From Candidatus Omnitrophota bacterium (GTDB taxonomy: Bacteria > Omnitrophota > Omnitrophia > Omnitrophales > Aquincolibacteriaceae): a stretch of DNA of 64,000 bases. Shown piece after piece: positions 4,957-54,690 of the stretch. The translations under genes were made by a program, and so were the position numbers. Positions within the stretch are counted from its first letter, which is position 1; the number at the start of each line of letters is the position of its first letter. The notes beneath the pieces were generated by a model that was given only the letters and a program-made list of their open reading frames with translations, had not been told where the DNA came from and searched no databases. Location of the stretch: assembly GCA_043821445.1 (NCBI GenBank), contig JBDRCT010000037.1, positions 49,703 through 113,702 on the forward strand. The letters are read 5' to 3'.

Positions 4957-4964
4957 GCTCATGG

Positions 4965-5070
4965 ATCATTGCGACCTTGCTGCTGTCTTGCGACAGCAAG
5001 ACGGCAAGGGAAGCAATCCCGTTTTAAAGAAAGATTGCCGCGCCCCAAAGAACGGGGCTCGCAATGACAC
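4965..5070. repeat. MITE/REP-like palindromic element, family 1, long copy
   Basis: atcattgcgac ... ggaagcaatcccgttttaaagaaagattgccgcgcc ... gctcgcaatgaca in the nuoH-nuoJ spacer. Shares core and termini with the 55376-55516 copy. Confidence 0.75.
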
Positions 5071-5085
5071 AAAGAAAGTGAAACT

Positions 5086-5598
5086 ATGGAAATATTAGAA
5101 ATGGCCGCAAAATTCGGAACGTACGCTGTGATGGCCGTGATCCTTGTGTTCGCCCTGGGCGTGGTCACACTCCGGAATCTTTTCCATTGCGCGCTTTGCC
5201 TCGCGGCCGCGCTGATCGGAACGGCGGTCATTTATGTCGTGCTCCAGGCGGAATACCTCGCCGCGATCCAGGTCCTTCTTTACGTCGGTGCCGTGGTCAC
5301 GCTCGTCATCTTTGCCATTATGCTGACAGAACACCTTGCGGGAAAGACCGTTCGCCAGAATAATTCCCAGAGCCTGCCGGCGATGGCGGGGCTGTTGGGC
5401 TTCGTGTTGCTCGTCACGGCTCTGATCTTGAAAACGCCCTGGCCGGTCACCCCGGCCGCGCTCAAAGCCAAGGTTTCGGTCATGGGGCTCGGCAAGGCCT
5501 TGATGGGAACTTATGTGTTCCCGTTCGAGGTCATCTCGATCGTCTTGATCGCGGCCTTGATCGGCACGGTGGTCATCGCCAAAAAGGATGATGTATGA
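5086..5598 (+). CDS. nuoJ: NADH-quinone oxidoreductase subunit J
   Basis: Hydrophobic NuoJ-like protein ([22 protein letters not shown]) in the expected operon position. Confidence 0.85.
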
Positions 5599-7849: not shown

Positions 7850-7947
7850 TCTTAAAGTATTGAGTTCAGAGTTCGGAGTTCGGAGTAAAACCATGGGCCT
7901 TTACTCCCGCCCCCGAACTCCTGGCTCCGTACTAAAAAGGAGTTTTT

Positions 7948-9428: not shown

Positions 9429-9534
9429 AACCCCGTTAGACCTTTTGAAATCAGTCTCAATCGCATGGATGTAAAAGAAGCTATGAACAAAAGCAAAACG
9501 AAATTTATTATTAAAGTGGAGGTCTAACGGGGTG
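9429..9534 (+). promoter_or_regulatory. Inverted 13-nt arms (AACCCCGTTAGACC ... GGTCTAACGGGGTG) bracketing the SD and GTG start of nuoN
   Basis: Left arm 9429-9442, right arm 9521-9534. The right arm contains the nuoN GTG (9532) and lies just 3' of a GGAGG SD. A 33-codon sORF (9426-9527, MNPVRPFEISLNRMDVKEAMNKSKTKFIIKVEV) with its own AAGGA SD runs between the arms. The same arms recur at 29014-29124. Confidence 0.5.
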
Positions 9535-10938: not shown

Positions 10939-11037
10939 AAGTGCGCCGTTTTTCAGCCTGCCCCGTACTACGGGTTCCCGATCATGGTCGTAAGAAAAAC
11001 TCTTTGCAAAATAGACCCCATTGTTTTTTCACCCTTG

Positions 11038-11931
11038 ATGAATAAGCCTTGCCGTTGGTACGGGGTCCCGGAAAAAGCGCTTCTTCAGGATTTCCTCTTC
11101 ACGGTCCTGAAGGACCTCAAGAAAACAAAGATCAAGCAGATCCTGAAATTCGGCTCCGTCCACGTCAACGGCCGCGAGGTCACTTGGTACCGGCACCCCT
11201 TGAAGCCCGGCGACAAGGTCGAGATCCTGGGGAAAGAACGCGCTTCCGCGGAAAGATCCAAATCAGAGCTGGGCCTTGTGATCGTCTATGAGGACGAGGA
11301 TCTCCTGGTCGTGGAAAAACCTGCGGGGCTTCTGACCATGGGGACGGAACGCGAAAAAGAGGCGACGCTTTATTTTATGCTGGGCGAATACGAACGCTCT
11401 AAAGCCAAGGGCGGCCGGGACCGTGTTTTTATCGTGCATCGCCTGGACCGGGACGCTTCGGGATTGATCGTCTTCGCGAAAAACGACGCCGCAAAGCACG
11501 TGCTCCAGGGCCACTGGGAACTCGTCACCAAGAAATACTATGCGATCACGGAAGGGACTCCGGAGAAAAGATCGGGAACGATCGAGAACTATCTCAGGGG
11601 AGACGATTTCAAACGGGTCTACAGCGTTCCTAAAAACCACCCCGAAGCCCGACATGCCGTCACGCATTACCGCGTGCTCCGCGAGAACGGGGGCTACGCC
11701 CTCCTGGAAGTCCAGCTCGAGACCGGCCGCAAGAACCAGATCCGGGTGCATCTCTCCGGCCTCGGGTGCCCCATCATGGGCGATGAGAAATACGGCGCCA
11801 AGTCCGACCCTTTTCGCCGCCTGGCGCTCCACGCCTGTTTTCTCTCATTTCCCCACCCCGCCACGGGTGAGCTCAAGACCTTCCGGTCCTCTCTCCCCGC
11901 TCCTTTCAAAAAGATTTTCCCGACTACGTAA
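11038..11931 (+). CDS. RluA/RluD-family pseudouridine synthase with N-terminal S4-like domain
   Basis: VVEKPAGLLTM, HRLDRDASGLIVFAKN, NQIRVHL motifs. An in-frame upstream start at 10984 is possible. Confidence 0.8.
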   Translation: MNKPCRWYGVPEKALLQDFLFTVLKDLKKTKIKQILKFGSVHVNGREVTWYRHPLKPGDKVEILGKERASAERSKSELGLVIVYEDEDLLVVEKPAGLLTMGTEREKEATLYFMLGEYERSKAKGGRDRVFIVHRLDRDASGLIVFAKNDAAKHVLQGHWELVTKKYYAITEGTPEKRSGTIENYLRGDDFKRVYSVPKNHPEARHAVTHYRVLRENGGYALLEVQLETGRKNQIRVHLSGLGCPIMGDEKYGAKSDPFRRLALHACFLSFPHPATGELKTFRSSLPAPFKKIFPTT

Positions 11932-11935
11932 CAAC

Positions 11936-11975
11936 AAAAGGGGACAGGCATTGAGTGACTGCCTGTCCCCTTTTG
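11936..11975 (+). terminator. Rho-independent terminator after the pseudouridine synthase gene
   Basis: aaaaggggacaggca-ttgagtgac-tgcctgtcccctttt: perfect GC-rich stem followed by a T run, 5 nt after the stop. Confidence 0.8.
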
Positions 11976-11992
11976 TTTGACCAACCTAAAAG

Positions 11993-12083
11993 TGTCAGAG
12001 TATCAGAGTGTCAAAGTATCAGTGTTGACTCGTTGATACTATGACACGAGTTTGTTCCTGGCGAACGGTGACACTTTGATACT
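11993..12083. repeat. MITE-like element, family 2 (GTGTCAGAGTATCAGAGTGTCA ... TGACACTTTGATACT), copy 1
   Basis: Near-identical ~90-bp element with internal inverted repeats also at 24963-25054 in the same orientation. The two copies bracket the signalling island. Confidence 0.8.
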
Positions 12084-12130
12084 TAAGAATTCAGGGTTTA
12101 GTGTTTCTGGTTGCGGGGTTCTTGGCACTG

Positions 12131-12493
12131 CTAACCGATATACTTCTTGATCGTGGCGACCAACTCGTCGGATTTGAACGGCTTGGTGAGACAGCCGGCG
12201 GCCCCACATGTCGTGAACTTATCCTCAAGAAATTTGGCATTCGCAGAGATCAAAATAATGGGGATGTTTTTTGTTGCTTCTTCTTTCGATAATATTTTGG
12301 CGACTTCATCGCCATTCATGACCGGCAGGAGAACGTCCATAAGGATCAGGTTCGGCATCTTTTGACGCGCGAGATCAAGGGCCTCCCGGCCATTCGCGGC
12401 CCCAAAGGTCTCATAACCTACATGCCTGAGCCTGAGCAACGTCACCAGAAGGAGATCGCTTTCATCATCCACCACGAGGATTTTTTTTGTCAT
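12131..12493 (-). CDS. Single-domain response regulator (CheY-like receiver)
   Basis: KILVVDDE ... LMDVLLPVMNGDEV ... K-P receiver signature. Confidence 0.85.
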   Translation of the reverse strand: MTKKILVVDDESDLLLVTLLRLRHVGYETFGAANGREALDLARQKMPNLILMDVLLPVMNGDEVAKILSKEEATKNIPIILISANAKFLEDKFTTCGAAGCLTKPFKSDELVATIKKYIG

Positions 12494-12505
12494 AGGAGGT
12501 TCATT

Positions 12506-15500
12506 TTACAACGGTAAAGTAAAATGAAAAGAACTTCCTTTTCCGACGGTGGATTCCGCCCATATTTTTCCATGATGCGCAAGAATGATCTTTTTGGAGA
12601 TCGCGAGTCCCAAACCCGTGCCGCCTTTCTGCCTGTTCATGAGACCGCCTACCTGCTCAAAGGGCTGAAAAAGTTTAGGGAGATCTTCGGGGAGAATCCC
12701 CTCTCCTGTGTCCTGTACCCTTACATGCACGACGTCCTTCTCCTTTTGGACGGCAAGAGTGATGTCGCCGTTTTGGGTGTGACGGATAGCATTATTCACC
12801 AGATTCGTTATGACCTGGACCAGTTTGTCCCGGTCGAATTTTATTTTAGGGAGCCCCTTCTCCATCTCCACCTTGAGATCTAAACCTTTTCCTTTCACTA
12901 AAACGCTCATGCTTTGCCGGATCTCCTCCATTACCTCATGGAGATCATTTTGCAAAATGAGATATTCCATTTTTCCCGATTCTATTTTCTGGAAATCCAG
13001 AACATTGCTGATCAAGCCGATCAACCGCTCGCTATTCTTTTTCGCTATCGCTAATACCTCCTTGAGTTCGTCATCGACCTTGTCCGGCAAACCTTCCAAA
13101 GCAATTTCCAAAGCTCCAAGGATCACCGCGATCGGACTTCTAAGCTCGTGAGAGATCATCGAGATAAACTTTGTTTTTGCCTCCGTAGCGGCCGCCATAA
13201 CCTCCACGCGGTTCTTTTCTGCTGCCAGTATTTTTTGCTCGGTGATATCCTCGGAAATACCCAACAGGTATTTCGTGACCCCATCGGCCCCTCGAACGCA
13301 GACCTTCCGTGTGTGAAGCAACCGCTCGCCTTTCTTGGCCGTTAAAATAGGCTCTTCGGGAATGTCCACCATGCCGGCCTTGCCATCGAGCACTTCGCGG
13401 TCCTTGGCCGCAAAGAACGCCGCCTGTTCGGGAGGAAAAAGATCCAGGTTGTTCTTGCCAAGCACTGCCTTGCGGTCATAGCCCAGGAGTTCCTCTCCCG
13501 CACGATTGAATATGATGAAACGCAGGTCTTTCGCCTCTTTCAGGAAGATCATGAGCGGAACATTTTCCACGACCGCCTCGGTGAGTTCTTTCGATTCCCT
13601 GAGTTCCTGCTCGGTCTTCATGCGATCGGTGATATCCCGGGCAATGCCCAGCACGCCAATGATTTTTTGGTGGGTATCAAAGAGAGGCATTTTTAAAGTA
13701 TCGAATATCCGGATCCCTTCCGGTGTGTTCGCCGGATCATGAGTATTATGGATCACGTTTCCGTTCAAGACGTCCCGGTCATCATTTTCAAACCCGCGTA
13801 TCCCCTTAAGCGGATTCCCATGAACAAGTTCCGGATCCCATCCGTTCTCGACGTCCGTATGCCCGATCATATCCTTCGGTGCCTTACCGACAGCTCTGGC
13901 GTAAGCCTTGTTGGCAAGTATCGTGCGCAGTTCAGTGTCTTTTGCAAAAATAAAGTCCGGCGTAGAATCAATGATCTCTTTTAATACTTCGCCTTGCTGT
14001 TTTAACTCTTCCTGTATTTTTTTCCGCTCGGTAATGTCCCAGAAAAAGCCGAGGAGCCCCGTTACGTGACCCGCCCCATCGCGGACAGGCACCTTGACGA
14101 TATGGACATAAGACTTCCGAGAGCCTGAGAGATAATCCCGGATCCCATGGTATTCCTCTTCCCGGTCTTCCGGCATCCCCGATTCCATGATCTGCTTATC
14201 TTCATCCCTTTGTTTTTCCGCCAGATGCGTAGGAAAAAAATCATAGTCTGTTTTTCCCACGATCTCTTCCGACCGGATCCCAAGGTCCTTTGCGTAATTC
14301 TCATTGCAGGATAAATAGACGGAGTTCTTGTCTTTAAGGAACACCTTGGAGGGCAAAGTCTCGATGAGTGTTCTGAACTGCAGTTCCTTGGCTTCTGCCA
14401 ATTCTTTTTTCAACCGCTTGCGCTCGGTGATGTCGCGGATATTGCACTGGATCACTTTGCGATGGTCCACCTGATAGACATTACTCACGAACTCCACTTC
14501 GATCTTCCGGCCATCTGCCGTCTCCAAGGGCAGATCTTCATAGCGGGCGTATTTTTCCTGTTGCAGTTTCAGGAAATTATTCTTATTCGCAATGATATCC
14601 TTGAGACATCCGACATCCCAGATCGCTTTTCCGAGGAATTCTTTGTGCGAATATCCTAACATCTCGATCAAATACGGGTTGGCATCCAGGATCATGCCTG
14701 TCCCGGCATCGAGGATCAAGATGCCGTCTTTCGCTGCCTCAAAAAGGCGACGGTATCGCGTTTCTGAATCTAGAAGCAATGCTTCCGTCCGTTTGCGCGC
14801 TTCAAGCTGTAGAGTGCGGTACCAAAAGGCCATTCCACCTGCAACACAAAGGATCAAGATAAGAACCGCGAGGGAAACCGCCACAGCACGCAAACGCACC
14901 TCTCCTCGGATCTCCGCTTCGTCTTCCTTAGTCACCAGGAACCAGTCCGTCCCGGGTATAGGCTGCAGATCTGCGACAACCGCCTTCCCAAGGTAATCCT
15001 TACCGTAGAAGATCCCTCTCCTCCCGAGGACCGCCTGAACGGCCGGTAACGTGTTCAGAGAAAGCAGAAAGCTCAGCCTCAGGGCTGTGTTTTTCCGGTG
15101 CCTGAGTTCGTTTAGAAAAAGCACTTCGTCACCGTCCCGGCGCACCAGCAAAGTCTCGCCGCTTTGGCTGGATGTCGGCCAGGCCTCGATCATCGGGAAA
15201 AGGTATTCTTGCACATTTGTAGTCAACACAAGAACCGCCAGTGTTTGGTTCGCATCGTCCCTGATAGCCGCTGCGATATCGATATGGATCCCACCGGAGA
15301 CAGTATAGTGCAACTGGCTCAGCACCGGACGACGTTCCGTTAAAGCCTTCTTCACCGCCACCCAGCTTTCTTTCTCCATCTCCACAGGCCGAGAAGCACC
15401 GGAAAGCAGGATCTTCCCGCCCGCGTCCACCAGAAGTGCCTGGAAATAAATGCCGAGTTCCTGTTCAAGCTGCAGGCGTTCGACCAGATCCTCTCTGTCG

Positions 15501-15820
15501 GCAAGCCGCTCCGGATCGCGAAGCCATTCGGCCAAGATTCTTTTAACCGCCGGAGAATCTGAGATCCTTCTCGCGTCATTGCTCCGCTCCTGGCACCAAC
15601 GCTGGATCTGTTTTATCTTGATCTGATTAATGGCGCCCAGCCCAGAGATCCTCAGTTGCCGGATCCGGTCCAGGTCGGAAAAATAATAAAACGAACCGCA
15701 CGCAATAAATAATACCGCGATCAGGAAGAACCATAGCATCATCTTGTGCCCGGGTACCCGGGCGGCCGCTTCCCAATGACCGTTGCTCGTTCTTGCCGGC
15801 TTGTCTGGACTCATATCCAC
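12506..15820 (-). CDS. Sensor histidine kinase: periplasmic sensor domain + TM + multiple PAS + HisKA + HATPase_c
   Basis: HELRSPIAVILG (H-box); GTGLGLAISKKIILAHHGKIWAESTVGKGSSFHFTLP (G2 box); repeated PAS blocks. The N-terminal sensor domain is paralogous to that of 22372-24927. Confidence 0.9.
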   Translation of the reverse strand: MDMSPDKPARTSNGHWEAAARVPGHKMMLWFFLIAVLFIACGSFYYFSDLDRIRQLRISGLGAINQIKIKQIQRWCQERSNDARRISDSPAVKRILAEWLRDPERLADREDLVERLQLEQELGIYFQALLVDAGGKILLSGASRPVEMEKESWVAVKKALTERRPVLSQLHYTVSGGIHIDIAAAIRDDANQTLAVLVLTTNVQEYLFPMIEAWPTSSQSGETLLVRRDGDEVLFLNELRHRKNTALRLSFLLSLNTLPAVQAVLGRRGIFYGKDYLGKAVVADLQPIPGTDWFLVTKEDEAEIRGEVRLRAVAVSLAVLILILCVAGGMAFWYRTLQLEARKRTEALLLDSETRYRRLFEAAKDGILILDAGTGMILDANPYLIEMLGYSHKEFLGKAIWDVGCLKDIIANKNNFLKLQQEKYARYEDLPLETADGRKIEVEFVSNVYQVDHRKVIQCNIRDITERKRLKKELAEAKELQFRTLIETLPSKVFLKDKNSVYLSCNENYAKDLGIRSEEIVGKTDYDFFPTHLAEKQRDEDKQIMESGMPEDREEEYHGIRDYLSGSRKSYVHIVKVPVRDGAGHVTGLLGFFWDITERKKIQEELKQQGEVLKEIIDSTPDFIFAKDTELRTILANKAYARAVGKAPKDMIGHTDVENGWDPELVHGNPLKGIRGFENDDRDVLNGNVIHNTHDPANTPEGIRIFDTLKMPLFDTHQKIIGVLGIARDITDRMKTEQELRESKELTEAVVENVPLMIFLKEAKDLRFIIFNRAGEELLGYDRKAVLGKNNLDLFPPEQAAFFAAKDREVLDGKAGMVDIPEEPILTAKKGERLLHTRKVCVRGADGVTKYLLGISEDITEQKILAAEKNRVEVMAAATEAKTKFISMISHELRSPIAVILGALEIALEGLPDKVDDELKEVLAIAKKNSERLIGLISNVLDFQKIESGKMEYLILQNDLHEVMEEIRQSMSVLVKGKGLDLKVEMEKGLPKIKFDRDKLVQVITNLVNNAIRHTQNGDITLAVQKEKDVVHVRVQDTGEGILPEDLPKLFQPFEQVGGLMNRQKGGTGLGLAISKKIILAHHGKIWAESTVGKGSSFHFTLPL

Positions 15821-15879
15821 TCCGTCAGATGGACGATACGTTAAAATCTATGAAACCCCAAATCCCTGCCTGACCGGCC

Positions 15880-16030
15880 GGCAGGCGAAACCCTGAACTC
15901 GACAAACCCTAAATCCAAAACTCTAAATAAATCCAAAACCTAAAATCCAAAATTCGACAAATTTTATACACTAAATATTAAATCTAAAATTCCAAACCCT
16001 AAATCCAAAAAGTTTCGGTTTTCAAAAAGT
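15880..16030. promoter_or_regulatory. AT-rich degenerate (C)TAAATCCAAAA repeat tract upstream of the 12506-15820 kinase
   Basis: Repeated ccctaaatccaaaa, aaatccaaaacctaaaatccaaaattcgacaaa and ctaaatattaaatctaaaattccaaaccctaaatccaaaaag. A similar tract lies at 21240-21330. Confidence 0.4.
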
Positions 16031-16053
16031 GTGCGCTCGTCGTCGATCGTTCG

Positions 16054-16440
16054 TCAAACACCTCTTGGACCCAGACGTTCTTCAATGCAATCCATCAGTT
16101 GTTTGATGTCTACCGGTTTAGCCAGAAAGAACTGGCCGCCTATTTCTCCTCCGGTTCGCGCTAATTCTTGAGCACTCACAGCTCCTGTTAAGAAAACGAT
16201 GGGCACTTGAGCCAAAGCAGGGTCCGATCTGATCTCAAAAGCTAAAGCCGACCCTTCCATTTCAGGCATCATGATATCGATGAAAATAATCTGGGGTTTG
16301 AAATCACGGGCTTTTTGTAATGCTAATTTAGCGTTTTGCTCCACCGCGACCTCGTAGCCGCCTTTCTGTTCCAAAACCCTCTTAAACATGCGAAGCAGCG
16401 CCTCTTCGTCGTCGACGAAAAGAATCCTCTTTTTTTCCAT
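16054..16440 (-). CDS. Single-domain response regulator (receiver)
   Basis: ILFVDDEEALL ... FIDIMMPEMEGSALAF ... receiver fold. Stop is 1 nt from the upstream kinase start. Confidence 0.85.
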   Translation of the reverse strand: MEKKRILFVDDEEALLRMFKRVLEQKGGYEVAVEQNAKLALQKARDFKPQIIFIDIMMPEMEGSALAFEIRSDPALAQVPIVFLTGAVSAQELARTGGEIGGQFFLAKPVDIKQLMDCIEERLGPRGV

Positions 16441-19424
16441 TAAACACCCCCCTTTTTCCGTTCATCCAATATTTCGTTAACTTTTTTCAACAGAGAGAGC
16501 GAAGAAAATGGCTTGGGAATGAGCCCGGCATCAGGACCCAGCACATCAAACCCATCCAAAGCATCCCCCATATAGCCGGACATAAAAAGCACTTTAAGAT
16601 CCGGTTGGATTTTTTTGATCCTCTCCGCGGTTTCTCTGCCGCCTATCTGAGGCATAATAACGTCCGTTAACAAAAGATCGACTTTTACATGCTTGCGTGA
16701 AAGCTCCTCCAACAGGTTAATGGCATCGACGCCGCTTTGCGCTACGAAAAGAGTATAACCTTGTCCACTTAAGATCTTGGAGCAAAACTGGCGGATCATC
16801 GGCTCATCTTCGACCAATAGGATGGTCTCCGATCTTTGAGGCAGGATCTCCTTCTCCTTCTCCTTCTCCTTCTCCTTCTCCTTCTCCTTCTCCTTCTCCT
16901 TCTCCTTCTCCTTCTCCTTCTCCTTCTCCTTCTCCTTCTCCTTTTCGCTGATATCTAATTCTGTGGCAGAAGGCAATAAGACTTTAAATGCGGTCCCCTT
17001 TCCCGGCTCACTTTGAACAGAAATGTGACCCTCCATCCGCTTAATGATCCCGTAACACGTCGCAAGACCCAGCCCTGTCCCTTTATCTTTAGATTTCGTG
17101 GTAAAAAAGGGTTCGAACAGATGGCGTTTAGTCTCTTCATCTATACCAACGCCTGTGTCAGTCACAGACAGTTGGACGTACGCTCCGGGCTTTAGGCCTG
17201 GATCGTTCATGACATCCGCTTCATTCAGAATAATATTTGTGATTTCAAAAACTATTTTTCCTTTGCCCGACATAGCATCCCGCGCATTCACCGCGAGATT
17301 CATGATGACTTGTTCCATCTGGTCCGGATCGATCTTAGTCCTCTTCAATAAACTATCTGTGAACATTACGACTTCAATGCCTGCGCCCAGAAGACGCTTG
17401 AGCATCTGGCTCATGTCCATCACGAGAGCGCTCAGATCGACGAGAATGGGTTTCACCGGTTGGCGGCGCGAAAAAGCGAGAAGTTGATTCGTAAGATTCT
17501 GCGCGCGCTTGCCGGCTTTGAAAATTTCCTCTAGATCATCATGAAGCGGATTATCAGGAGCCAGGGATCCCAGTGTCAGGTCAGCATAGCCATTGATCAC
17601 GGTCAGGAGATTATTAAAATCATGGGCAATGCCACCGGCCAGTATGCCGACGGCTTTCATCTTTTCGGCGTGGGCAATCTGGGCCTGAACCCTTTCTAAT
17701 TCCGCCAAGTTCTTTTCCAATCTTTCCCTGATCTGGTTGTTATCAGCCAGCATGCTGGTCATGATCTCGCGGGATTTCATCTCTTCCTTCAAAACCTGAT
17801 TCATCTTCTCTTCCGCCCGCTTGCGCTCGGTGATATCATGGGCTACGTACACCGCCCCCAGGATCTTTTCGCAATGCTCGCCTTTTTCTTTAAATGACGG
17901 GTAATCGTCCTTTGGCTCTTTTTGAGGACAGTCTTTTTCCCTTAGTATTGCTCTGCTTAAAATAACCGGCATTTTCTTTCCATCCTTAGCTTTGTAATTG
18001 ATCTCATAATCCTTCGAAACTCCCCCCTTGAGAAGCTTCTTAAGTTTTGCTCCCTGAAGTGGAATTTCTTCTTCTGAAAATAAAAGACTTATATCTTTCC
18101 CGATCAGTTCTTTTTTCTCATAGCCTAAAAGCGCGTATGTCGCTTTATTAACAATTGAAATTTTTGAATCGGGATCAATGACTACCAGGCTATCGACCAT
18201 GTTCTCCATGATATTATCGAGATAATCCCTTGAAACGGTGGTCTTCCCCAACTGCCTGGTCATCGCATTGAAAGCATCGGCCAGGTCTTCGATTTCATCC
18301 CCGGTTTTCAAGTCTATTGTGTGATCCCATTCTCCCTGAGAGAAACGCTGTATCCCATCCCGGATCTTTTGTAGCGGAGAAATAAAAACGGCTTTGATCC
18401 TCTTTTGCAGGCTCCTTATGAGCAAAAGAGAAAAAAATATTATCATAATGAAGCCCACGGCAGAGATCACATAGAACGGAAAAAAGATCTCCTTCATCTC
18501 TTGCGTCACAACAGTGATCCAATGGATATCATTCCTCTTAAGATATTGGCTATTAACCTCTGCCGCGGTTACAAGAGAATTTCCATCCTGCTTGCCTAGA
18601 TTCAAAATCAAAAAATCACGCTTGCTGTTCAAGAGCTCCCCTATCATAATGCTCGTCAGCGGCGATTGGCTCATCGGATCCATGCCGGCGTGATAAATCA
18701 CCATTCCTTGTTCATTAAGCAGCGCCGAACGGCCGGTTCTGCCGAATTTATACCGTTTCATCATCTTAAAAAATACATCAATATCTACTATGGCTTTTGC
18801 AATACCGATGATCCGGCCCTTCTCATCCTTGATCGGAACCGCAATAGCGCTGCTTATTTTCCCGCTGGATTCATCTATCGTAACTTCGCCAAAATAATTA
18901 TCGCCTTTGCCGTTATCATAGGCGCGTTGCCACCACCGTTCATCCGCCTGATAGAAATCACTCGTTTTGTTTGACGCAGCCACCAATCCGCCATATTGGT
19001 CCGTAAGAAATATTTCCGCTATAACATCATCGCCTTCCGCCAAGACCTTCAGCCTCTGACCTATGCGGGAACCCAGCCATTCCTGTAGCTGGCTATCCGC
19101 CATAGCGGCCCACTGCTTATCCATGTGCGCCATATACTCCTGGATGGCTTTGGGTTCCAAATCTTTATAGCGCAGGTTCGCTTCTTGAACCGCATCGCGC
19201 CACCACTGACTTTCCACGTAAAATCTTATTTCGTCCACTTGACGATCAATGAGACTCGCGATGAATCCCGAGAATAACCGCGCATCTTGTTTTTGCCTGC
19301 TGCCGATGGTGTCAAAGCGCATTTTCCAGACGCTGCCGAAACCTGCGATCAGCAGACATGCGACCGCTATGCCGATACTGAAGACTATGAATCGTGAAAT
19401 TTTTTTACTGACACTTGCTTTCAT
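16440..19424 (-). CDS. Hybrid sensor histidine kinase: double-Cache-like sensor + HAMP + PAS + HisKA + HATPase_c + (EK)16 linker + receiver
   Basis: [16 protein letters not shown] (H-box); [37 protein letters not shown]; a long EKEKEK... run; C-terminal [13 protein letters not shown] receiver. Confidence 0.9.
16848..16943 (-). repeat. Perfect hexanucleotide SSR (CTCCTT)16 on the + strand = (AAGGAG)16 on the coding strand, encoding the (EK)16 linker
   Basis: 16 uninterrupted 6-bp units counted directly. The unit is the Shine-Dalgarno consensus on the mRNA. Confidence 0.95.
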
Positions 19425-19430
19425 CGTAGT

Positions 19431-20343
19431 TCAAGTCCCTTGATCTTTGAGCTTTTTCTCCAGATCTGCCACCTGCTCTTTCAATTCCAAGATCCGCTCT
19501 TCCCTGCCGATGCTTGCTTTATAAAAAACTTCCAGTTCCTGCAGGCGTTTCTGCAATTCCTTCTCGGCTTTCTTATACCCCGTGATATCCTCCACCATCT
19601 CGATGACGGCGACAACCTTGCCATGCTCGTCTTTGATCGGAGAAGCGACGATCCTGTAATTAAACACTTGGCCGCCCATAGGCGTTTCCGTCACATCTTC
19701 GTGCACGAGTCCGTCTTTCAATGTCTTGGCTGTCGGGCAATAAGAACAAATTTCATCTCTCGGCGGTTGGTTAAAGGCGCGGTAACAAATAGGTTTGTCT
19801 TCAAGATCAATGCGCGGATTCCATTTCTTCATTTGCTTGTTTAAAGACAAAATTTGCATATCCGGAGAGACCACTGCCACGCCGATACTGATGTTGTCCA
19901 GAATGCCTCGAAGCTTTTCCTCACTTTCACGCAAGGCATTATCCGCCTTTTTGTGGTCGGTGCGCTCCTGCCTCTCTTTAAGTGCGCGTTGGATGGCCGG
20001 AACAAGTCTGGAAAGCTTGTCTTTCATGACGTAATCCACCGCCCCGGACTTCATCATCTCGACGGCGATGTCCTCGCCGATGGTTCCCGAAACAACGATG
20101 AAAGGTGTTTCCGGAAAGCGCTCCTTGACGATATCGAGAGCCTTGAAAGCATCGAATGACGGCATCTTATAGTCGCAGAGGATCATGTCAGGAACAAATT
20201 CGCCAAGCGCCGAAAGAAACTCCTCCTTCGACTGCACCCATTTCACGGTATGAGTGAAGTCCCTCTTGCCGAGCTCTCTTTTGATGAGCTCGGCATCAAC
20301 GGCGGAATCTTCTACGGCGAGGATATGTATTTTTTGAGCCATA
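19431..20343 (-). CDS. Response regulator: receiver + PAS + coiled-coil C-terminus
   Basis: GGAGG RBS then ATG (MAQKIHILAVEDSAVD...). The ORF extends further 5' in frame but lacks an RBS there. PAS block after the receiver. Confidence 0.8.
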
Positions 20344-20368
20344 AAACCTCCCAACCAGCCTTCAGTCG

Positions 20369-20734
20369 TCAGCTGGCAGCTTTCAGTTTCTTTTTGAAGC
20401 CCGTTATCATTGCCGACAATTCGTCCGATCTTTCGAGAAGAGGATCCGATTCGTTTGACCTCAGGTACTCTAATCTTTTTGCGATCTCTAACCCGCACAT
20501 GACTTCGTGATTCGACCTATGTGCAATACTCAGGAATCTGTTAAATTCGTTATCAGAACCCGCGGCGCTACCTTCCGCGATATTTAAAGCCACAGAAGTT
20601 GCCGCTTGCCTTAATTGACTGGTTAAGCCATAAACTTCTTTTGCCGGGAATTTTTCCGTGACTCGATAGATCTCTTCAATGAGATCCATTGATTTGTTCC
20701 AAATCTCTAATTTCCTAAATTTCTGATTTTTCAC
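20369..20734 (-). CDS. Four-helix-bundle protein (TIGR02436, 23S rRNA IVS-protein family)
   Basis: KFPAKEVYGLTSQLRQAATSVALNIAEGS signature typical of the family. A paralogue lies at 21907-22260. Confidence 0.75.
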   Translation of the reverse strand: MKNQKFRKLEIWNKSMDLIEEIYRVTEKFPAKEVYGLTSQLRQAATSVALNIAEGSAAGSDNEFNRFLSIAHRSNHEVMCGLEIAKRLEYLRSNESDPLLERSDELSAMITGFKKKLKAAS

Positions 20735-20840
20735 TTTCGAGCCCTCTGCTTTCAGCTATCAGTTTTTAGCCTAAAAGCTTTTGCCGATGGCTGTCGGCTG
20801 AAGGCTGATCGCTGACGTCTGTAAGCTCACGCCCCACATC

Positions 20841-21227
20841 CTACGTCCCACGCTCCGGTGCATACTTCTCCAGGACCACTTTAAGCACTTCCGGATCGAT
20901 GGGTTTCTCCACATATTCATCTGCGCCGATCATCTTAGAAAACTTCTCATTCAGGTCCGGATAACCGGTCAAGATAACGACTTTCTCAGCCCTGTGGTTT
21001 TTCTTGATATGTTCGGCTATCTCCAGACCCGTAGGCCCCGGCATGTTCTCGTCCAAAAAAAGGATGTCGTAAGCTTTCTCTTTGATCGACCGCATGGCCT
21101 CTTCCCCGTCCAGAACATACTTCGCAGACGATACTTTGGTCTTCATAAACGGGCGCATCGCCCTTTGGAAAAGCTCCATATCCGTGGGAGAATCTTCGGC
21201 GACCAGGATCCGCATTTTCTTATTCAT
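20841..21227 (-). CDS. Single-domain response regulator (receiver)
   Basis: MRILVAEDSPTDMELF ... LFLDENMPGPTGLEI ... receiver fold. Confidence 0.85.
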   Translation of the reverse strand: MNKKMRILVAEDSPTDMELFQRAMRPFMKTKVSSAKYVLDGEEAMRSIKEKAYDILFLDENMPGPTGLEIAEHIKKNHRAEKVVILTGYPDLNEKFSKMIGADEYVEKPIDPEVLKVVLEKYAPERGT

Positions 21228-21239
21228 ATCTTCTCCTAA

Positions 21240-21330
21240 TGAACATTTTAAAATACTAAATCCGAAATTCTAAACAAATTTAAAACCCAAATTTCAAATT
21301 CAAACTTTTTTCAGATCTCGTCTTTTGAAT
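21240..21330. promoter_or_regulatory. AT-rich TAAATCC/AAAATT degenerate repeat tract upstream of the 20841-21227 receiver gene
   Basis: tactaaatccgaaattctaaacaaatttaaaacccaaatttcaaattcaaa. Same flavour as 15880-16030. Confidence 0.35.
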
Positions 21331-21401
21331 TTATTTTGACTTTAGAGTTAAAAAAATGAGCCCTTTCATTTTTGAACAGCGGACAGTTTATTGATAAAAA
21401 C

Positions 21402-21845
21402 TCAGTACCAGCCAAGTTCGGCGATCATCGTGCTGAACTTTTCAAAATCGACCGGCTTCACGATGTAGCTGTTCGCTCCGAGCTCATAACTTGCGACCAA
21501 GTCGCTTTCTTCCTGAGAAGACGTCAGGATCACGACTGGGATGGACCGTGTCCTCTCATCCGCCTTGATCCTTTTCAGGACCTCCTTACCTTCCACCCTG
21601 GGAAGCTTCAGGTCGAGAATGATGATCTTAGGCGGCACCCTGATGTCCCGGTCCGAATAGATCCCTTTGCAAAATACGAAATCGAGCGCCGCGGCTCCGT
21701 CTGTGATCACATGGATTTTGTTTGTGAGATTCTTCTTTTTGAATGCCCGAAGTATAAGCTCGACGTCGTCCGGATTATCTTCTACCAACAGAATCTCGAC
21801 CAGTTCACCGTTTGTCATGCGAATCTCCTTTTTTCCATAGTTCAC
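21402..21845 (-). CDS. Single-domain response regulator (receiver)
   Basis: ILLVEDNPDDVELILRAF ... IIILDLKLPRVEGKEVL ... receiver fold. Confidence 0.85.
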   Translation of the reverse strand: MNYGKKEIRMTNGELVEILLVEDNPDDVELILRAFKKKNLTNKIHVITDGAAALDFVFCKGIYSDRDIRVPPKIIILDLKLPRVEGKEVLKRIKADERTRSIPVVILTSSQEESDLVASYELGANSYIVKPVDFEKFSTMIAELGWY

Positions 21846-21906
21846 AGTTCGTTGTTATTGGTTCATTGATCATAGTTCAGCGTTGGTTGTTCATCGTTAA
21901 GTGTGT

Positions 21907-22260
21907 TCAGCAAATCAAAGCCCTCTTCAAGCCACTCAGCATCTTTGAAAGATCTGTTAGCCTATTTTCTAGATCTTTATATTTTTCTATTTGAAAATAA
22001 TTTTGTCTGGAAGCTATTTGCAAAATAGCTAGGCATTCATAAATGGAGCCACGAGACATGTCTATAAAGCGTGCAAAATCTTTCTTACTCCTCGCAGATC
22101 CCTCCGATATATTAGCCGCAATAGATACAGCCGCTCTTCTTAGTTGGCTGGTTAATCCGAACTGTTCATCTTTAGGAAAAGCCCTTGTTAAAACATAAAT
22201 TTCGTTCATAAACTCTAACGCTTTTTGGTAAACCTCTAACTTTTCGAATCCAAACCCCAT
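21907..22260 (-). CDS. Four-helix-bundle protein (TIGR02436 family), paralogue 2
   Basis: AFPKDEQFGLTSQLRRAAVSIAANISEGSAR signature. Flanked on both sides by GTTCA/TGAAC direct-repeat tracts. Confidence 0.75.
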   Translation of the reverse strand: MGFGFEKLEVYQKALEFMNEIYVLTRAFPKDEQFGLTSQLRRAAVSIAANISEGSARSKKDFARFIDMSRGSIYECLAILQIASRQNYFQIEKYKDLENRLTDLSKMLSGLKRALIC

Positions 22261-22371
22261 ATTTTCGCCTTCTTGCCTTGTTCCGTGTTTTGTGTTCGTG
22301 GTTCATTGTAACTACGAACTATGAACTACTCACTATTCACACAATAAACAACGAACTACCGACAATGAACG

Positions 22372-24927
22372 TCACCTCGGAAGCGTGAAATAAAATGTTG
22401 CCCCTTGACCGACCTCACCCTCCGCCCACACCCTGCCTCCGTGGCGCAAGACGGCACTTTTAACGATCGCAAGACCTATCCCGGTGCCTTTGAACTCGTC
22501 CTGCGTATGAATTCTCTGGAAGATCCCAAAAAGCTTATCTGCGTACTTCATGTCGAATCCCACCCCGTTATCCTTGACGTAATAAACACGTTCTCCCTCC
22601 TTATCGTAACTCCCGATCTCGATCACGGCCTTTTTTTGGCGAGCGGTGAATTTTATCGCATTCAAAATGAGGTTCGTGAATATTTGCCTGACAAGCATCA
22701 AGTCCGCTCGGACGGCCGGTAACGGCTTTACGACCACGTCAATGGCCCTGTCGGCAGGGGCCCCCACTTTCAACTCTTGCTCTATAGAACATACAAGCGT
22801 CGTCAAGTCGATATCGACCAACTGAATCGCGATTCTTCCAAAGTGAGCGAGTTTGAGAAGATCCTCGATCATCATTCCCATATTTCTCACGTTGTCGTTG
22901 ATAACGCCGATCACGCGCCGGCCATTATCATCGAGCTTAGAAGCATAATCCTCGAAGAGAATACCCGCGAACCCCCCTATCGCTCTGAGCGGGGCCTTCA
23001 GATCGTGCGCGACCGAATAGCTAAAAGCATCCAGCTCTTTGACCGCTGCGGTAAGATCCGCCGTGCGCAATCTGACGCGATCTTCAAGCTCTATATTGAT
23101 CTGCCGGATCTTCTCCTCCATCTTCTTACGGTCGGTGATATCACGGGCAAAACTGTTGATCTCCTTGACCTCGCCGGAGTCATCGAAATACAAGTTGATA
23201 TCCCAAAGCATATCAAAAACCTGGCCGCTCTTATGGACTTGACGATTCTCAAAGCTGATCCGTTTCTCTTTGCCCGTGACCCAACCTTCAAAAGCCTTCT
23301 TTGTCCTTTCTCGGTCATCCGGATGAATAAAGTCAAACGCCGACCGGCCGGCGCATTCTTTGGGTTTGATGCCGAAAAATCTTTCCGCGCTATGATTCAC
23401 AAAGGAAAAACGGCCTTCTTTGTCCACAATGGTGATCAGATCGTCGGTCCCTTCCACTAGATCGCGGTAGCGTTCATTGGCCAGGCGTAAGGTCTCTTCC
23501 GTCCGTTTGCGTTCGGTGATGTCGGTCAAGATACAATGGGTTTGCCTGAACGTCCCGTCCGGCTTATATCCGATACGCCCCTCAAAGACAATGAACCGTC
23601 TGTCGCCGTTCTTATGAAGCATTTGAAATTCGGAATGTATTTTCCCGTCTTTTTTAAAAAGGGGAAAACGTTCGCGAAAGGCGTCCACGAATTCAGGGGC
23701 CAGAAAATCACCGAACCACTTCCCCACGACTTCTTCGCGACGGTAACCAAGCGTCTCGATCCATATTTGATTCACATCAAGAAAGCGGCCCTCTTCATCC
23801 AGGGACTGGTAACCCACCGGCGCGTATTCGAAAAGAGAGCGATAGCGCGCCTCGTTCTCCCCCAGTATCTTATCCGACCGTGCTTTTTCTGCCCTGCGCC
23901 GGATCCGGTAATGGTAGGCGATCGCTCCTGCGACACCCAGGATCATCATGAAAACAAGCCCAAAGATCACAAAAGCGCGAAAGCGAAGTTCCGCTAGTAT
24001 TTCCGCAGTATCTACCTTGCTCACGAGATGCCAGGGGGTCCCCGGGACCGGACGAAGATCAGCCAACACCTCCGTCCCGCGATAATCCGAACCGAGGAAT
24101 GCGCCTATCCTGCCCTTCGCTGCCTGAACCGCCGGGAGATCGGTCTTAGAAAATGGAAAGCTTAAAACAAGGGCTGTATTCTCGTGGTGCCTCAAATCGT
24201 TCAAGAAGATCGCACTATCCCCGTTTCTCCGGATCAGAAGCGTTTCCGCACTGCGATTCGGTACCGGCCAACTCTGGATCATCGGAAAAAGGTATTCTTC
24301 CGCATAGGAAGAAAGGACGGCCACGGCCAGCACTTTTCCTGTAGTGTCCAACACAGAGGCTGCGATATTTTGATAGATCTTTCCGGATGCTGTTCGGGTC
24401 AATTCGCCTATGACCGGCACAGGACTTTTCAAAGCAAGATCCACCACCTCCCAGTCCTCTGTTCGTATTTCAACGGGATCAGGCTCGGAAAAAAGAACAC
24501 GGTGGGCGGAATCCGTTATGAATGCCCGAAAATAAAAATCAGACTTAACCTCGACCTCCAACCTCTGTTGCAAAATCTTTTTAACATCAGCGTCGTCAGG
24601 CCCGGAGATCCATTGCTCGAACACAAAAGCCAGGGCTGAAGATCCGAAAAGGCGGGAGATGTCGTTTATCCGCTCTTTTCGCCAACGCAGGATCTGATCC
24701 ACCTTCATTTGTCCGATGGCCGCGAGCTCATTGGATTTTTCCGTTTTGATCCGGCTCGCCTCGGCCTCGTAATAAAGGAAACCGAAAACGACGAGGATGG
24801 CCGCCACCAAACAGAAGAGCGCGACTCCGCGCCACGGAAGAACGAAAGACCTTTCACCGGTCGCGGCCGGGAGCTCCGCTCCTTCGCGGTCCCCTTTACT
24901 TTTTTCCGTCTTTTTTTCCAGGTTCAT
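22372..24927 (-). CDS. Sensor histidine kinase: periplasmic sensor + TM + 3 PAS + HisKA + HATPase_c
   Basis: AHDLKAPLRAIGGFAGIL H-box; GTGIGLAIVKSAVLRHGGRVWAEGEVGQGATFYFTLP. N-terminal sensor paralogous to 12506-15820 (LPAVQA..G..YRG..V.ADL.P.PGT.W.LV.K). Confidence 0.9.
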   Translation of the reverse strand: MNLEKKTEKSKGDREGAELPAATGERSFVLPWRGVALFCLVAAILVVFGFLYYEAEASRIKTEKSNELAAIGQMKVDQILRWRKERINDISRLFGSSALAFVFEQWISGPDDADVKKILQQRLEVEVKSDFYFRAFITDSAHRVLFSEPDPVEIRTEDWEVVDLALKSPVPVIGELTRTASGKIYQNIAASVLDTTGKVLAVAVLSSYAEEYLFPMIQSWPVPNRSAETLLIRRNGDSAIFLNDLRHHENTALVLSFPFSKTDLPAVQAAKGRIGAFLGSDYRGTEVLADLRPVPGTPWHLVSKVDTAEILAELRFRAFVIFGLVFMMILGVAGAIAYHYRIRRRAEKARSDKILGENEARYRSLFEYAPVGYQSLDEEGRFLDVNQIWIETLGYRREEVVGKWFGDFLAPEFVDAFRERFPLFKKDGKIHSEFQMLHKNGDRRFIVFEGRIGYKPDGTFRQTHCILTDITERKRTEETLRLANERYRDLVEGTDDLITIVDKEGRFSFVNHSAERFFGIKPKECAGRSAFDFIHPDDRERTKKAFEGWVTGKEKRISFENRQVHKSGQVFDMLWDINLYFDDSGEVKEINSFARDITDRKKMEEKIRQINIELEDRVRLRTADLTAAVKELDAFSYSVAHDLKAPLRAIGGFAGILFEDYASKLDDNGRRVIGVINDNVRNMGMMIEDLLKLAHFGRIAIQLVDIDLTTLVCSIEQELKVGAPADRAIDVVVKPLPAVRADLMLVRQIFTNLILNAIKFTARQKKAVIEIGSYDKEGERVYYVKDNGVGFDMKYADKLFGIFQRIHTQDEFKGTGIGLAIVKSAVLRHGGRVWAEGEVGQGATFYFTLPR

Positions 24928-24962
24928 ATGAGGTCGGAGTCCAAGGTTCCCAGTGCTCTGAG

Positions 24963-25054
24963 GTGTCAGAGTATCAGAGTGTCAGGGGGTCAGAGTTGAC
25001 ACGCTGACACTATGACACTCGTTCGCCTCTGGCGAACGATGACACTTTGATACT
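24963..25054. repeat. MITE-like element, family 2, copy 2
   Basis: gtgtcagagtatcagagtgtcagggggtcagagttgacacgctgacactatgacactcgttcgcctctggcgaacgatgacactttgatact. Direct copy of 11993-12083. Confidence 0.8.
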
Positions 25055-25145
25055 CTTGCGCTTTGGCACTTAAAAATTTGAGTTTGCTTTTTGATGTTCT
25101 TCAGGCGGGCCGCCCCGCAATAGCGGGCGAGCCTCATCCTGTTCT

Positions 25146-28184: not shown

Positions 28185-29015
28185 CTACCGCATCCTGAGA
28201 TAGTGACGGGTCAGTGCGATCAGGAAAAGCGGTGTGAGTAAAATCCCCGAGAGGGCTTCGACCGCCGCGACGCCGCGGACCCAGCCCATCGGAAGATAAT
28301 CCCCATACCCCACGGTCGTGTAAGTCATAATGCTCAGATAAAACGATTCGAAAAGATCGATCTTCTGAACAAAACTTCCGGTCAGGACCGTTCCGGACAT
28401 ATGATAACAAAGCGCGCTCAGGATGATCACGGTGCAGGCGATCATGAAGGTGCGGAACGGCAGTTCCCCGTAACCCCAGATCAGACGGTTCAGAGAACCG
28501 AAAAACCAGCTAAAAAAAGTCCGGACCCTTCCTTTCCGGGAGGCCCGTTCGAGACCGACCGCTTCCGGAAGACTTGTCTTCGTTTGCGTGAAAGTTCTCC
28601 ATAAACGCACGAGCCGGGCGTCCTTGGCGCGTTGGTAGCAATAGGAAAATTTCGTGAAATCCCCCTCTTTTTCATAGAGGAGCGCGGCTTCGCTGAAGAG
28701 CGTTTCCGCGTAAGCATGGTCTTGAGCCACGAGGGCCTGGATCGCGGCGGATTCATTGCGCGTCGCGGCGTTACGGAGCGGCTGCCAGCCGGTGTGAATA
28801 TTCCAGCATGTCGCGGCGGAGGAAAAACAGACTGCGGCTTTGAGGGGTTCGTTCGCCTCCTGAAAAAGCTTGGCCGCCCGGTCAAAGGTCTGGAACGCCT
28901 GGTCGATCTTGCTTTCGCCGCGAAGGCGGTGCGCCTCGCGCTCCAGAGCGATCGCTTGCTCGATCTTGCTGGTGGCTGCGGCTGACTCCGCATGAAGAAG
29001 CGTTTTCGGATCCAC
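28185..29015 (-). CDS. Two-TM potassium channel with an N-terminal TPR-like cytoplasmic domain (GTG start)
   Basis: TTVGYGD selectivity filter between two hydrophobic helices at the C-terminus. Alpha-helical, repeat-like N-terminal ~150 aa. Confidence 0.8.
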   Translation of the reverse strand: MDPKTLLHAESAAATSKIEQAIALEREAHRLRGESKIDQAFQTFDRAAKLFQEANEPLKAAVCFSSAATCWNIHTGWQPLRNAATRNESAAIQALVAQDHAYAETLFSEAALLYEKEGDFTKFSYCYQRAKDARLVRLWRTFTQTKTSLPEAVGLERASRKGRVRTFFSWFFGSLNRLIWGYGELPFRTFMIACTVIILSALCYHMSGTVLTGSFVQKIDLFESFYLSIMTYTTVGYGDYLPMGWVRGVAAVEALSGILLTPLFLIALTRHYLRMR

Positions 29016-29124
29016 CCCGTTAGATCTCCTATACCCTCGGAAGAGTTCTCTTCTTAATTAAAAAGACCAACCCGTCTTACCTCGGAAACCTCTCCTCCCA
29101 ATTGCATCAGAGATCTAACGGGGT
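29014..29124 (-). promoter_or_regulatory. Inverted 13-nt arms (ACCCCGTTAGATC ... GATCTAACGGGGTG) bracketing the SD and GTG of the K+ channel gene
   Basis: Same arm sequence and same position relative to SD/GTG as at 9429-9534. The interior sequence is unrelated. Confidence 0.5.
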
Positions 29125-37112: not shown

Positions 37113-37160
37113 TGGTTCTATTCTATAAGCCCTTATGGATATCGAGCAATCCTTTTTGTA

Positions 37161-38918: not shown

Positions 38919-39023
38919 GCGGTATCAGGCCCCTGGTCCAACAGGTTCATTATAAAAAACGTCCGTTCGAGAACGTCAGTGAACTTACCGATCATTTGTG
39001 GATATCGAGCGATCCTTTTTCTG

Positions 39024-40784: not shown

Positions 40785-40889
40785 GCGGTATCAGGCCCCT
40801 GGGCTAACAGGTTTATTATAAAAAACGTCCGTTCGAGAACGTCAGTGAACTTACCGATCATTTGTGGATATCGAGCGATCCTTTTTCTG

Positions 40890-42647: not shown

Positions 42648-42752
42648 GCGGTATCAGGCCCCTGGGCTAACAGGTTTATTATAAAAAACGTCTGTTCAAG
42701 AATGTCGGTGAACTTATCGATTACTTATTGATATCGAGCAATCCTTTTTGTA

Positions 42753-46753: not shown

Positions 46754-46790
46754 GTTTTTATGTTGTCCGTTGCGCGTTGAACGTTGCGCT
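46721..46790. repeat. MITE-like element, family 3, minimal ~70-bp hairpin copy spanning the stop codons of two convergent genes
   Basis: agcgcaacggtcaacgctcaacgg-ctaagctaggtttttatgttgt-ccgttgcgcgttgaacgttgcgct. The GT2 TAG (46751) and the permease stop (46789-46791) both fall inside the element. Confidence 0.75.
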
Positions 46791-54534: not shown

Positions 54535-54544
54535 TCAATGCCCG

Positions 54545-54690
54545 CGCGACGGGTAACGCTCAACGGAAAAGCGACAAAAAGACGCCCCGCAAGCTCCGTT
54601 GACTCGTTCAAACAGCTCCGATAGAATGCCCCGCATTAAGAATGCCCTTCATTCACTGAACGTTGTGCGTTGCGCTTTGCGCGTTGAGCG
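54545..54690. repeat. MITE-like element, family 3, long copy
   Basis: gggtaacgctcaacgg ... gaacgttgtgcgttgcgctttgcgcgttgagcg between csoR and tsaB. Termini match the copies at 45989 and 46721. Confidence 0.7.

Follow-up and report, generated by a model that had tools for sequence, protein, structure and literature searches.

Two direct copies of a 92-nt palindromic element, here called A and B, lie at the two ends of a series of signalling genes in the genome of a Candidatus Omnitrophota bacterium, within the 64-kb stretch of contig JBDRCT010000037.1 that we analysed (the window). Our analysis suggests that A and B are probably diverged copies of one gene-less element built of short tandem words, that they were inserted separately, and that they are kin of cassettes carrying a gene of the PF05635/TIGR02436 (S23p/IVP, Avd-like) family rather than the borders of a genomic island. 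Positions refer to the window unless a related or metagenomic locus (L followed by a number) is named. The two copies and the structure that adjoins one of them are as follows.

11992-12083: copy A, 92-nt palindromic word-array element, in the convergent spacer between RluD and the response regulator gene RR120
24963-25054: copy B, 92-nt palindromic word-array element, 36 nt upstream of the start codon of the kinase gene HK851 and downstream of the stop codon of a GGDEF-EAL gene
11933-11977: terminator-like hairpin adjoining copy A, whose 18-bp inverted repeat (AACAAAAGGGGACAGGCA / TGCCTGTCCCCTTTTGTT) is perfect and is accompanied by an A-run and a T-run

A repeat search of the window aligned A and B over 92 nt each, without gaps and in the same orientation, with a start-to-start distance of 12,971 nt. 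The two direct copies of about 90 bp that the initial annotation described are therefore real, although its term "near-identical" was too strong: the copies are 84% identical, and their longest identical runs measure 22 and 15 nt. The 22-mer common to both (GTGTCAGAGTATCAGAGTGTCA) is confined to these two sites in the window and was matched in 0 of 100 shuffles. In the alignment, the similarity ends at the element borders and the flanking DNA is unrelated.

The two copies are also laid out alike. Their 5' part consists of four GTRTCA words with an 8-nt period followed by three inverted words of the TGAYAC type, and their 3' part of a small hairpin followed by the end sequence TGACACTTTGATACT. 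The 5' arm is made of 8-nt GTRTCARR words and the 3' arm of complementary YYTGAYAC words, with two small hairpins nested inside. The outer arms (AGTATCAGAGTGTCA / TGACACTTTGATACT) are 93-94% complementary and form terminal inverted repeats (TIRs). The small inner hairpin is perfect in copy B (CGTTCGCC-TCT-GGCGAACG) and is held only via G-U pairs in copy A, and the internal inverted repeats that had been quoted for the element are present in both copies. Apart from the words, A and B share a non-periodic core (ACTATGACAC, CTGGCGAACG and the small hairpin) with about 75% identity, counted by eye. Neither copy contains an open reading frame (ORF). The predicted structure of both is a three-way junction of an outer stem and two inner hairpins. 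As + strand RNA, A folds with -38 and B with -51 kcal/mol (z -4.8 and -5.9 versus shuffled sequence), and as single-stranded DNA their z scores are -3.2 (A) and -7.0 (B), so that both copies fold far better than shuffled sequence in either form.

To compare this locus with relatives, we recovered eight related contexts via RluD homologues of 86-90% identity, and found the 92-nt element in none of them. The site of copy A is empty in L120 and L209, which have 5 nt where the window has 200 nt. The site of copy B is empty in L120, and homology with the L120 spacer resumes about 12 nt to the right of the copy. The RluD|RR120 junction occurs in four states: the 5-nt spacer, a hairpin of CTAAAT words (L126), a 350-nt TIR element (L125) and the 195-nt insertion of the window. 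Relative to L120, this last insertion comprises copy A together with the hairpin at 11933-11977, which resembles a bidirectional terminator and was not flagged by a simple terminator scan because its loop is 9 nt long. The L125 insertion in the same spacer (L125 10885-11248) is GC-rich and has 14-nt TIRs (AACCGGCAATTCCC / GGGAATTGCCGGTT). From this comparison of sequences, A and B were inserted separately, after the lineage had split from the relatives with empty sites. Both insertion sites are permissive spacers that lie at, or close to, the ends of the signalling locus.

Word arrays with and without a gene

The words of A and B are not confined to this genome. A scan for three consecutive GTRTCARR words in one genome per species, covering 1.2e12 positions, returned at least 119 loci, where we estimate that about 9 matches would be expected by chance. 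The loci come from Nitrospirota, Omnitrophota, Nitrospinota, Planctomycetota, Bacteroidota, Elusimicrobiota, Lentisphaerota, Chloroflexota, cyanobacteria and others. The following counts hold among the matches listed. Metagenome-assembled genomes (MAGs) often carry several such loci each, and the majority form is a hairpin of [GTRTCARR]n, a short loop and [complement]n. The GTRTCA arm comes first in 46 of 100 clusters and the reverse order is found in two. By placement, 54 of these 100 clusters lie between co-directional ORFs, 10 between convergent and 12 between divergent ones, and five inside ORFs; the arrays are often 0-20 nt from both flanking ORFs, and most fill a two-gene spacer. A purine-rich 5' arm is the rule in gene-less arrays, both of the GTRTCA type (35 versus 2) and with other words (32 versus 2), and copies A and B follow this purine-first polarity. 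As a palindrome reads alike on both strands, the polarity is independent of gene direction. Across the 1 Mb of fetched sequence, tandem periods of 7, 8 and 9 nt predominate, while the remaining words are highly diverse. Judged by this shared sequence design, A and B belong to a cross-phylum class of intergenic hairpin insertions. As to the polarity, one idea is that it reflects avoided Rho exposure of a C-rich, G-poor arm before its partner is transcribed; another is that array synthesis leaves it behind as a footprint.

The window also contains arrays of the same design around a gene. The two IVP cassettes lie between signalling genes, and a gene-less hairpin further to the left shares its word with one of them.

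20356-20827, minus strand: IVP cassette 1, PF05635/TIGR02436 ORF 20369-20734 between TCAGC/GCTGA inverted arrays (20356-20386 and 20790-20827), GC 0.42
21836-22370, minus strand: IVP cassette 2, PF05635/TIGR02436 ORF 21907-22260 between AGTTCR/YGAACT inverted arrays (21836-21891 and 22309-22370), GC 0.37
7855-7925: gene-less heptamer hairpin of GAGTTCR words and their complements, between nuoL and nuoM, absent in L120

The two cassette proteins were assigned to PF05635/TIGR02436 with an E-value of 1e-36. The arms of the cassettes are 20-30 nt long and 411-460 nt apart, and the GC content of the IVP genes is 0.37-0.42, whereas the genome as a whole has about 0.55. Cassette 2 has been inserted between RR147 and HK851, whose counterparts are neighbours in L125 and L126. 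Its word links it to the gene-less hairpin between nuoL and nuoM, as AGTTCR doublets in the window are found only in the arms of cassette 2 and in that hairpin (at 7863). The GTRTCA word of A and B likewise occurs with and without a gene: GTRTCA arrays bracket PF05635 genes in L065 (Victivallales), L080 (Nitrospiraceae) and L106, and the L080 cassette comes from the same MAG as the gene-less hairpins of L058. The broader notion that all word arrays adjoin IVP genes was dropped, as the fetched DNA contained an IVP gene at three among the at least 119 GTRTCA loci; in those three, the array abuts the gene.

We fetched 80 metagenomic loci encoding relatives of the window's IVP proteins, 67 of which could be tested for flanking repeats. 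An inverted repeat between upstream and downstream sequence scored above every shuffle in 52 of the 67, and the mean inverted-repeat score was 18.9, versus 8.2 for shuffles and 9.4 for the direct-repeat control. The arms of these loci consist of tandem 7-8-nt words, with a different word at nearly each locus, and the 5' arm contained more G than C in 45 of 47 cassettes (p 1.6e-11). Arm similarity tracks IVP protein identity: arms are shared in 35% of protein pairs at 60% identity or more, and in fewer than 1% below 50%. A cassette of the AGTTCR type is also present in the pseudopilin operons of L128 and L129, a context unlike that in the window. Finally, L179 and L187 have flanks that are 96.5% identical and carry the same PF05635 cassette (92.4% identical) in opposite orientation. 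L187 16-1458 and 1930-2050 align to L179 3315-1873 and 1383-1263, with the cassette at L187 1426-1960. As the breakpoints fall within inverted AGATGTC word arrays, this represents a natural inversion polymorphism. Taken as sequence comparisons, these results indicate that PF05635 cassettes have the same array design as A and B, move from one context to another while keeping their word, and are able to invert. In the limited collection of literature that we searched, there was no description of word arrays flanking PF05635 genes, of arm polarity or of cassette inversion.

Known relatives, possible role and alternative explanations

The closest known relatives of the elements are S23p-type intervening sequences (IVS) of 23S rRNA and the hairpins formed by STRR (short, tandemly repeated and repetitive) sequences of cyanobacteria. 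IVS that carry S23p have complementary ends, are cut by RNase III, have a low GC content and are regarded as selfish or parasitic (PMC4990558). Like the IVS of the Leptospira, Coxiella and Xanthomonas type, the IVP cassettes of the window consist of a PF05635 ORF within complementary ends able to pair into a long stem and have a low GC content, and both are patchily distributed among relatives. Unlike S23p-type IVS, the window cassettes lie between response regulator and kinase genes and not in rRNA helix 25 or 45, and their arms are tandem 7-8-nt words. A and B differ further from IVS in having no ORF at all, with stems that are given by the predicted fold.

STRRs are tandem heptamers in cyanobacterial intergenic spacers that can form hairpins, e.g., between hupS and hupL; their function is unknown, and a role in transcript stability or translational coupling has been proposed (PMC2670836). 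Compared with these, the words of A and B are 8 nt long and not 7, whereas the other arrays of the window and most IVP arms use 7-nt words. The host here is a member of the Omnitrophota, and the class spans many non-cyanobacterial phyla. No link to PF05635 and no arm-polarity rule is described in the STRR literature that we found, and neither the STRR nor the IVS papers mention word arrays that flank PF05635 genes. STRRs are also said to occur within a gene, as Vioque in 1997 reportedly described insertions in the RNase P RNA gene of heterocyst-forming cyanobacteria (cited in PMC2858038).

Three further families of small elements bear comparison. Repetitive extragenic palindromic (REP) sequences, their mosaic arrangements (BIME) and REPINs of proteobacteria are short intergenic palindromes in many copies, often within operons, that stabilise mRNA 3' ends and are thought to be mobilised in trans. 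The elements described here are likewise short intergenic palindromes. However, a REP is a single conserved imperfect palindrome of 20-40 nt with a GTAG-type 5' tetranucleotide that is tied to a RAYT transposase, whereas the arms of the class of A and B are tandem words that differ between elements. Miniature inverted-repeat transposable elements (MITEs) have TIRs that match those of a transposase-encoding insertion sequence and produce target-site duplications; the Correia/NEMIS elements of Neisseria are MITEs that are small and non-coding, have inverted ends, lie beside genes and give rise to transcripts that are cut by RNase III. A and B had been called MITE-like, and in a loose sense this holds, as they are small and non-coding, have terminal inverted repeats and show presence/absence polymorphism at orthologous sites, being missing from the corresponding spacers of relatives. 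The likeness fails at the target site, where A and B have no duplication, unlike the window element at 9437-9533 with its TIRs and TGAA duplication. Nor were ends that match a transposase-encoding insertion sequence seen for either copy. In our analysis, the IVP cassettes thus resemble S23p-type IVS outside rRNA, and A and B appear to be gene-less versions of them that are also STRR- and REP-like hairpins.

The most likely scenario is as follows. Each copy was inserted on its own into a permissive spacer, RluD|RR120 for A and GGDEF-EAL|HK851 for B. The gene-less arrays may be non-autonomous relatives of IVP cassettes whose spread takes place at the DNA level, as insertions that are selfish or near-neutral. 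Once transcribed, a stem of 40-50 kcal/mol could act like the stem of an rRNA intervening sequence or like an intercistronic REP or STRR hairpin, i.e., as a structure for RNase III-type processing or for protection of the 3' end that would punctuate the transcript. We infer that the likely role of the elements is that of a selfish insertion whose transcript forms an RNase III-type stem.

A number of results weigh against this interpretation of A and B. Neither copy is bounded by a target-site duplication (A is flanked by CCTAAAA|..|TAAGAAT and B by CTCTGAG|..|CTTGCGC), so that they lack the mark of classical transposition, and the 64-kb window holds just two copies. In blastn comparisons, none of the at least 119 word-array loci or the eight related loci contained a full-length relative of the element, as the arms alone matched; plasmid and phage collections did not contain a full-length relative either, and the non-periodic right end GGCGAACGNTGACACTTTGATAC gave 0 matches in the metagenome scan. 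The absence of the non-periodic core from every word-array locus compared implies that A and B are true copies of each other, while the class otherwise shares design and not sequence. No IVP cassette in the window has GTRTCA arms, and the gene calls in the fetched loci, on which placements are based, are crude longest-ORF calls. At the RNA level, the sense strand folded better in 15 and the antisense strand in 17 of 32 class members between co-directional genes (p 0.86). This lack of bias gives no pointer to selection on RNA, and that A and B fold slightly better as the + strand is no evidence for a + strand RNA. A search of the window with Rfam found no family at the gathering threshold and no rRNA, and with an E-value threshold it gave chance matches of the miRNA and CsrC type well below the cut-offs. 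Scans for promoter or terminator consensus sequences found none.

Could the arrays have arisen in place, by replication slippage and palindrome growth, with the likeness of A and B due to local gene conversion or to convergence on a favoured word? The word differs from array to array in almost every case, periods of 7-9 nt predominate, different arrays occupy the same spacer in different relatives and target-site duplications are absent, all of which speaks for such an origin. However, A and B share the non-periodic core as well as the words. Slippage alone also leaves the 46:2 arm order and the purine-first rule unexplained, and it does not account for words being inherited along with the IVP gene when this enters new contexts. 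We regard an origin by slippage as improbable.

A similarly low probability applies to the elements being host cis-regulatory DNA or RNA for the operon, i.e., regulator sites, a promoter, or a terminator or attenuator. The position of copy B just ahead of HK851 would fit such a role, as would that of copy A at the 3' ends of two convergent genes beside the terminator-like hairpin; in addition, the inverted words contain TTGACA-like hexamers, and class members lie flush against gene ends. Yet these words are found across phyla in more than 100 unrelated contexts, and close relatives with the same genes lack the element. The promoter reading was rejected: no sigma-70-type promoter or canonical terminator was detected, there is no -10 element at a workable spacing, and the 8-nt period places TTGACA and GATACT 12 or 20 nt apart and not 17. 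An array of regulator-binding sites was rejected too, as the Pfam search found no DNA-binding output domain among the regulators of the locus.

Beyond the separate insertion of A and B, one could propose that PF05635 genes with purine-first arrays constitute cross-phylum mobile, invertible cassettes, that gene-less arrays (those of the STRR type as well as A and B) are their non-autonomous derivatives, and that a nucleic-acid-handling activity of the IVP pentamer makes or maintains the arrays. We put this forward as a speculation that is more likely wrong than right. If it were true, the intervening sequences of rRNA would merely be the first-noticed cases, and the mechanism of mobility would have no described precedent. 

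Apart from that speculation, the architecture joins the four-helix-bundle family PF05635/TIGR02436, of which many genomes contain tens of copies, with rRNA intervening sequences and STRR-like hairpins. Its rules are inverted 7-8-nt words, a purine- or G-rich 5' arm on both strands, a word that is inherited with the gene, and inversion between the arms. If the link is real, it provides a handle on the function of IVP proteins and on the spread of the hairpins. It would also be of use in annotation, as many operon spacers of Omnitrophota, Nitrospirota and other phyla are taken up by arrays of this kind, which may even be found in frame within a gene.

The signalling locus and its counterparts in relatives

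The genes between and beside the copies, assigned by Pfam domain search for the proteins between them, are the following, in addition to the two IVP cassettes listed above.

12131-12493, minus strand: RR120, syntenic with L120, 89% amino-acid identity
12506-15820, minus strand: HK1104, PAS histidine kinase, syntenic with L120, 60% amino-acid identity
16054-20343, minus strand: RR128a, hybrid kinase hHK994 and RR-PAS, GC 0.46-0.49
20841-21845, minus strand: RR128b and RR147, orthologous to two response regulators of L125/L126, 58-62% and 77-81% identity
22372-24927, minus strand: HK851, dCache-PAS histidine kinase, at the same position as the kinase in L125 and L126
25146-26795: RR-GGDEF-EAL signalling protein gene, just outside copy B

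Ten minus-strand genes lie between the copies, and not 11 as initially counted; the description of their content stands, with eight receiver, PAS or histidine kinase genes and two PF05635/TIGR02436 genes. Left of copy A, the gene on the + strand that converges with RR120 encodes a RluD-like pseudouridine synthase. The closest proteins to those of the window are from Candidatus Omnitrophota MAGs, and HK851 is 100% identical to a protein of one such MAG at NCBI. Over its C-terminal half, HK851 shows 53-57% identity to the kinase that occupies the corresponding position in L125 and L126. For RR128a, hHK994 and RR-PAS, there is no orthologue at this locus in the relatives examined. In the hybrid kinase (16440-19424), an (EK)16 linker just upstream of the receiver domain is encoded by sixteen perfect TCTCCT hexamers (16847-16943).

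In the relatives, the locus takes several forms. L120-L123 and L209 share the order RluD, 5 nt, RR120 and a kinase that is 60% identical to HK1104. In L120, L121 and L123, this kinase is directly followed by GGDEF-EAL, scramblase and CMD genes, and the contexts of L122 and L209 stop within or just past the kinase. In L120, RR120 and a kinase of the HK1104 type (HK1094) thus fill the interval from RluD to the GGDEF-EAL gene, and the element is missing from both sides of the pair. In L125 and L126, a spacer with other insertions separates RluD from RR120, which is followed in turn by genes for an RR128b-like protein, an RR147-like protein and an HK851-like kinase. In L127, L124 and L210, wholly different genes follow RluD.

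The block that is missing from L120 extends from about 15852 to 25065 (~9.2 kb). The ends of this variable segment do not coincide with the repeats, as its left edge is 3.8 kb from copy A, which lies outside it; RR120 and HK1104 are both conserved. Had A and B recombined with each other, RR120 and HK1104 would be gone and one copy left; no relative shows that state. As most of the inner genes have orthologues at the same locus in genomes without a copy, the copies do not delimit a mobile unit. From the gene orders compared here, what lies downstream of RluD is a hypervariable signalling region, old and mosaic in make-up, and not one acquired block.

The initial annotation had proposed that the direct copies bracket a signalling island of ~13 kb and that homologous recombination between them led to its acquisition, excision or duplication, and although their direct orientation 12,971 nt apart, the lower GC between them and the variability of the region after RluD would agree with this, we consider it very improbable: L120 and L209 keep RR120 and the kinase, and L125 and L126 keep RR120 and the RR128b-, RR147- and HK851-like genes, all without any copy; none of the related contexts has one copy without the intervening genes; the identical runs of 22 and 15 nt at 84% identity are a poor recombination substrate; and the ten genes have signalling domains and PF05635 alone, with no integrase, transposase or recombinase domain found by Pfam. 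The GC content is indeed lower between the copies (~0.43-0.52) than in the flanks (~0.55), but the low GC of the signalling genes is common to their orthologues in relatives (0.46-0.52 in the window versus 0.48-0.53). The outliers are the two IVP genes, with 0.37 and 0.42, and the RR128a/hHK994 pair, with 0.465. The outcome for the locus itself is deflationary, in that the signalling block is not an island bounded by repeats.

Other insertions and repeats in the window

A and B are two of many small insertions in the window. Compared with L120, which is colinear with the window at 87-91% nucleotide identity, extra structured segments of 80-200 nt are present at nearly every gene junction, in the nuo operon and beyond. 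Moreover, all spacers within the signalling block hold word arrays, each with its own word.

9437-9533 and 10956-11065: TIR elements, insertions versus L120
3046-3147, 3407-3489 and 4934-5098: GC-rich stems, insertions versus L120
15880-16022: array of CTAAATCC/AAAATCCAAA words in the HK1104|RR128a spacer, where the ~9.2-kb block missing from L120 has its left edge
21240-21360: A+T-rich array of words and their inverted partners, in the RR128b|RR147 spacer

The element at 9437-9533, at the nuoM|nuoN junction, has the terminal inverted repeats ACCCCGTTAGACC / GGTCTAACGGGGT and an apparent TGAA duplication. It changes the start codon of nuoN from ATG to GTG, occupies the same site in L210 (2013-2115), is absent in L120 and has a related copy at 29014-29124. 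Near copy B, a 45-nt insertion versus L120 at the 3' end of the GGDEF-EAL gene (25096-25140) forms a small GC-rich hairpin with a flanking 15-nt direct duplication, TGTTCTTCAGGCGGG. Two insertions versus L120 at 1785-1945 and 4928-5102 share stems of the GTCATYGCGAGC...GCTCGCAATGAC type and look like another recurrent hairpin family.

The array at 15880-16022 belongs to a family with the words CCTAAATCC / GGATTTAGG that recurs at different operon spacers of several relatives (L208 835-1005 and 4440-4600, L126 2185-2290). This family is an exception to the rule that the 5' arm has more G than C, as its 5' arm is A- and C-rich.

A palindromic CAACG/CGTTG array (45990-46092) lies in frame inside a family-2 glycosyltransferase gene (ORF 45815-46753), where the Pfam match covers 191 residues versus a profile of 168 positions. 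Related arrays are found at 46714-46790 and 54541-54690, and the latter encloses TTGACT-17 nt-TAGAAT, as seen by eye.

Longer repeats are present as well. The region 37132-44372 consists of four tandem paralogous units of 1863-1866 nt that are 70-93% identical, with a GC content of about 0.45. Three of the units encode proteins of about 585 aa and the ORF of the fourth is 399 aa long; the two that were scanned had no Pfam match. Two adjacent genes of the Cpn60/GroEL family (58380-60035 and 60586-62217) are 2206 nt apart, with repeated segments that are 75-82% identical at the DNA level.

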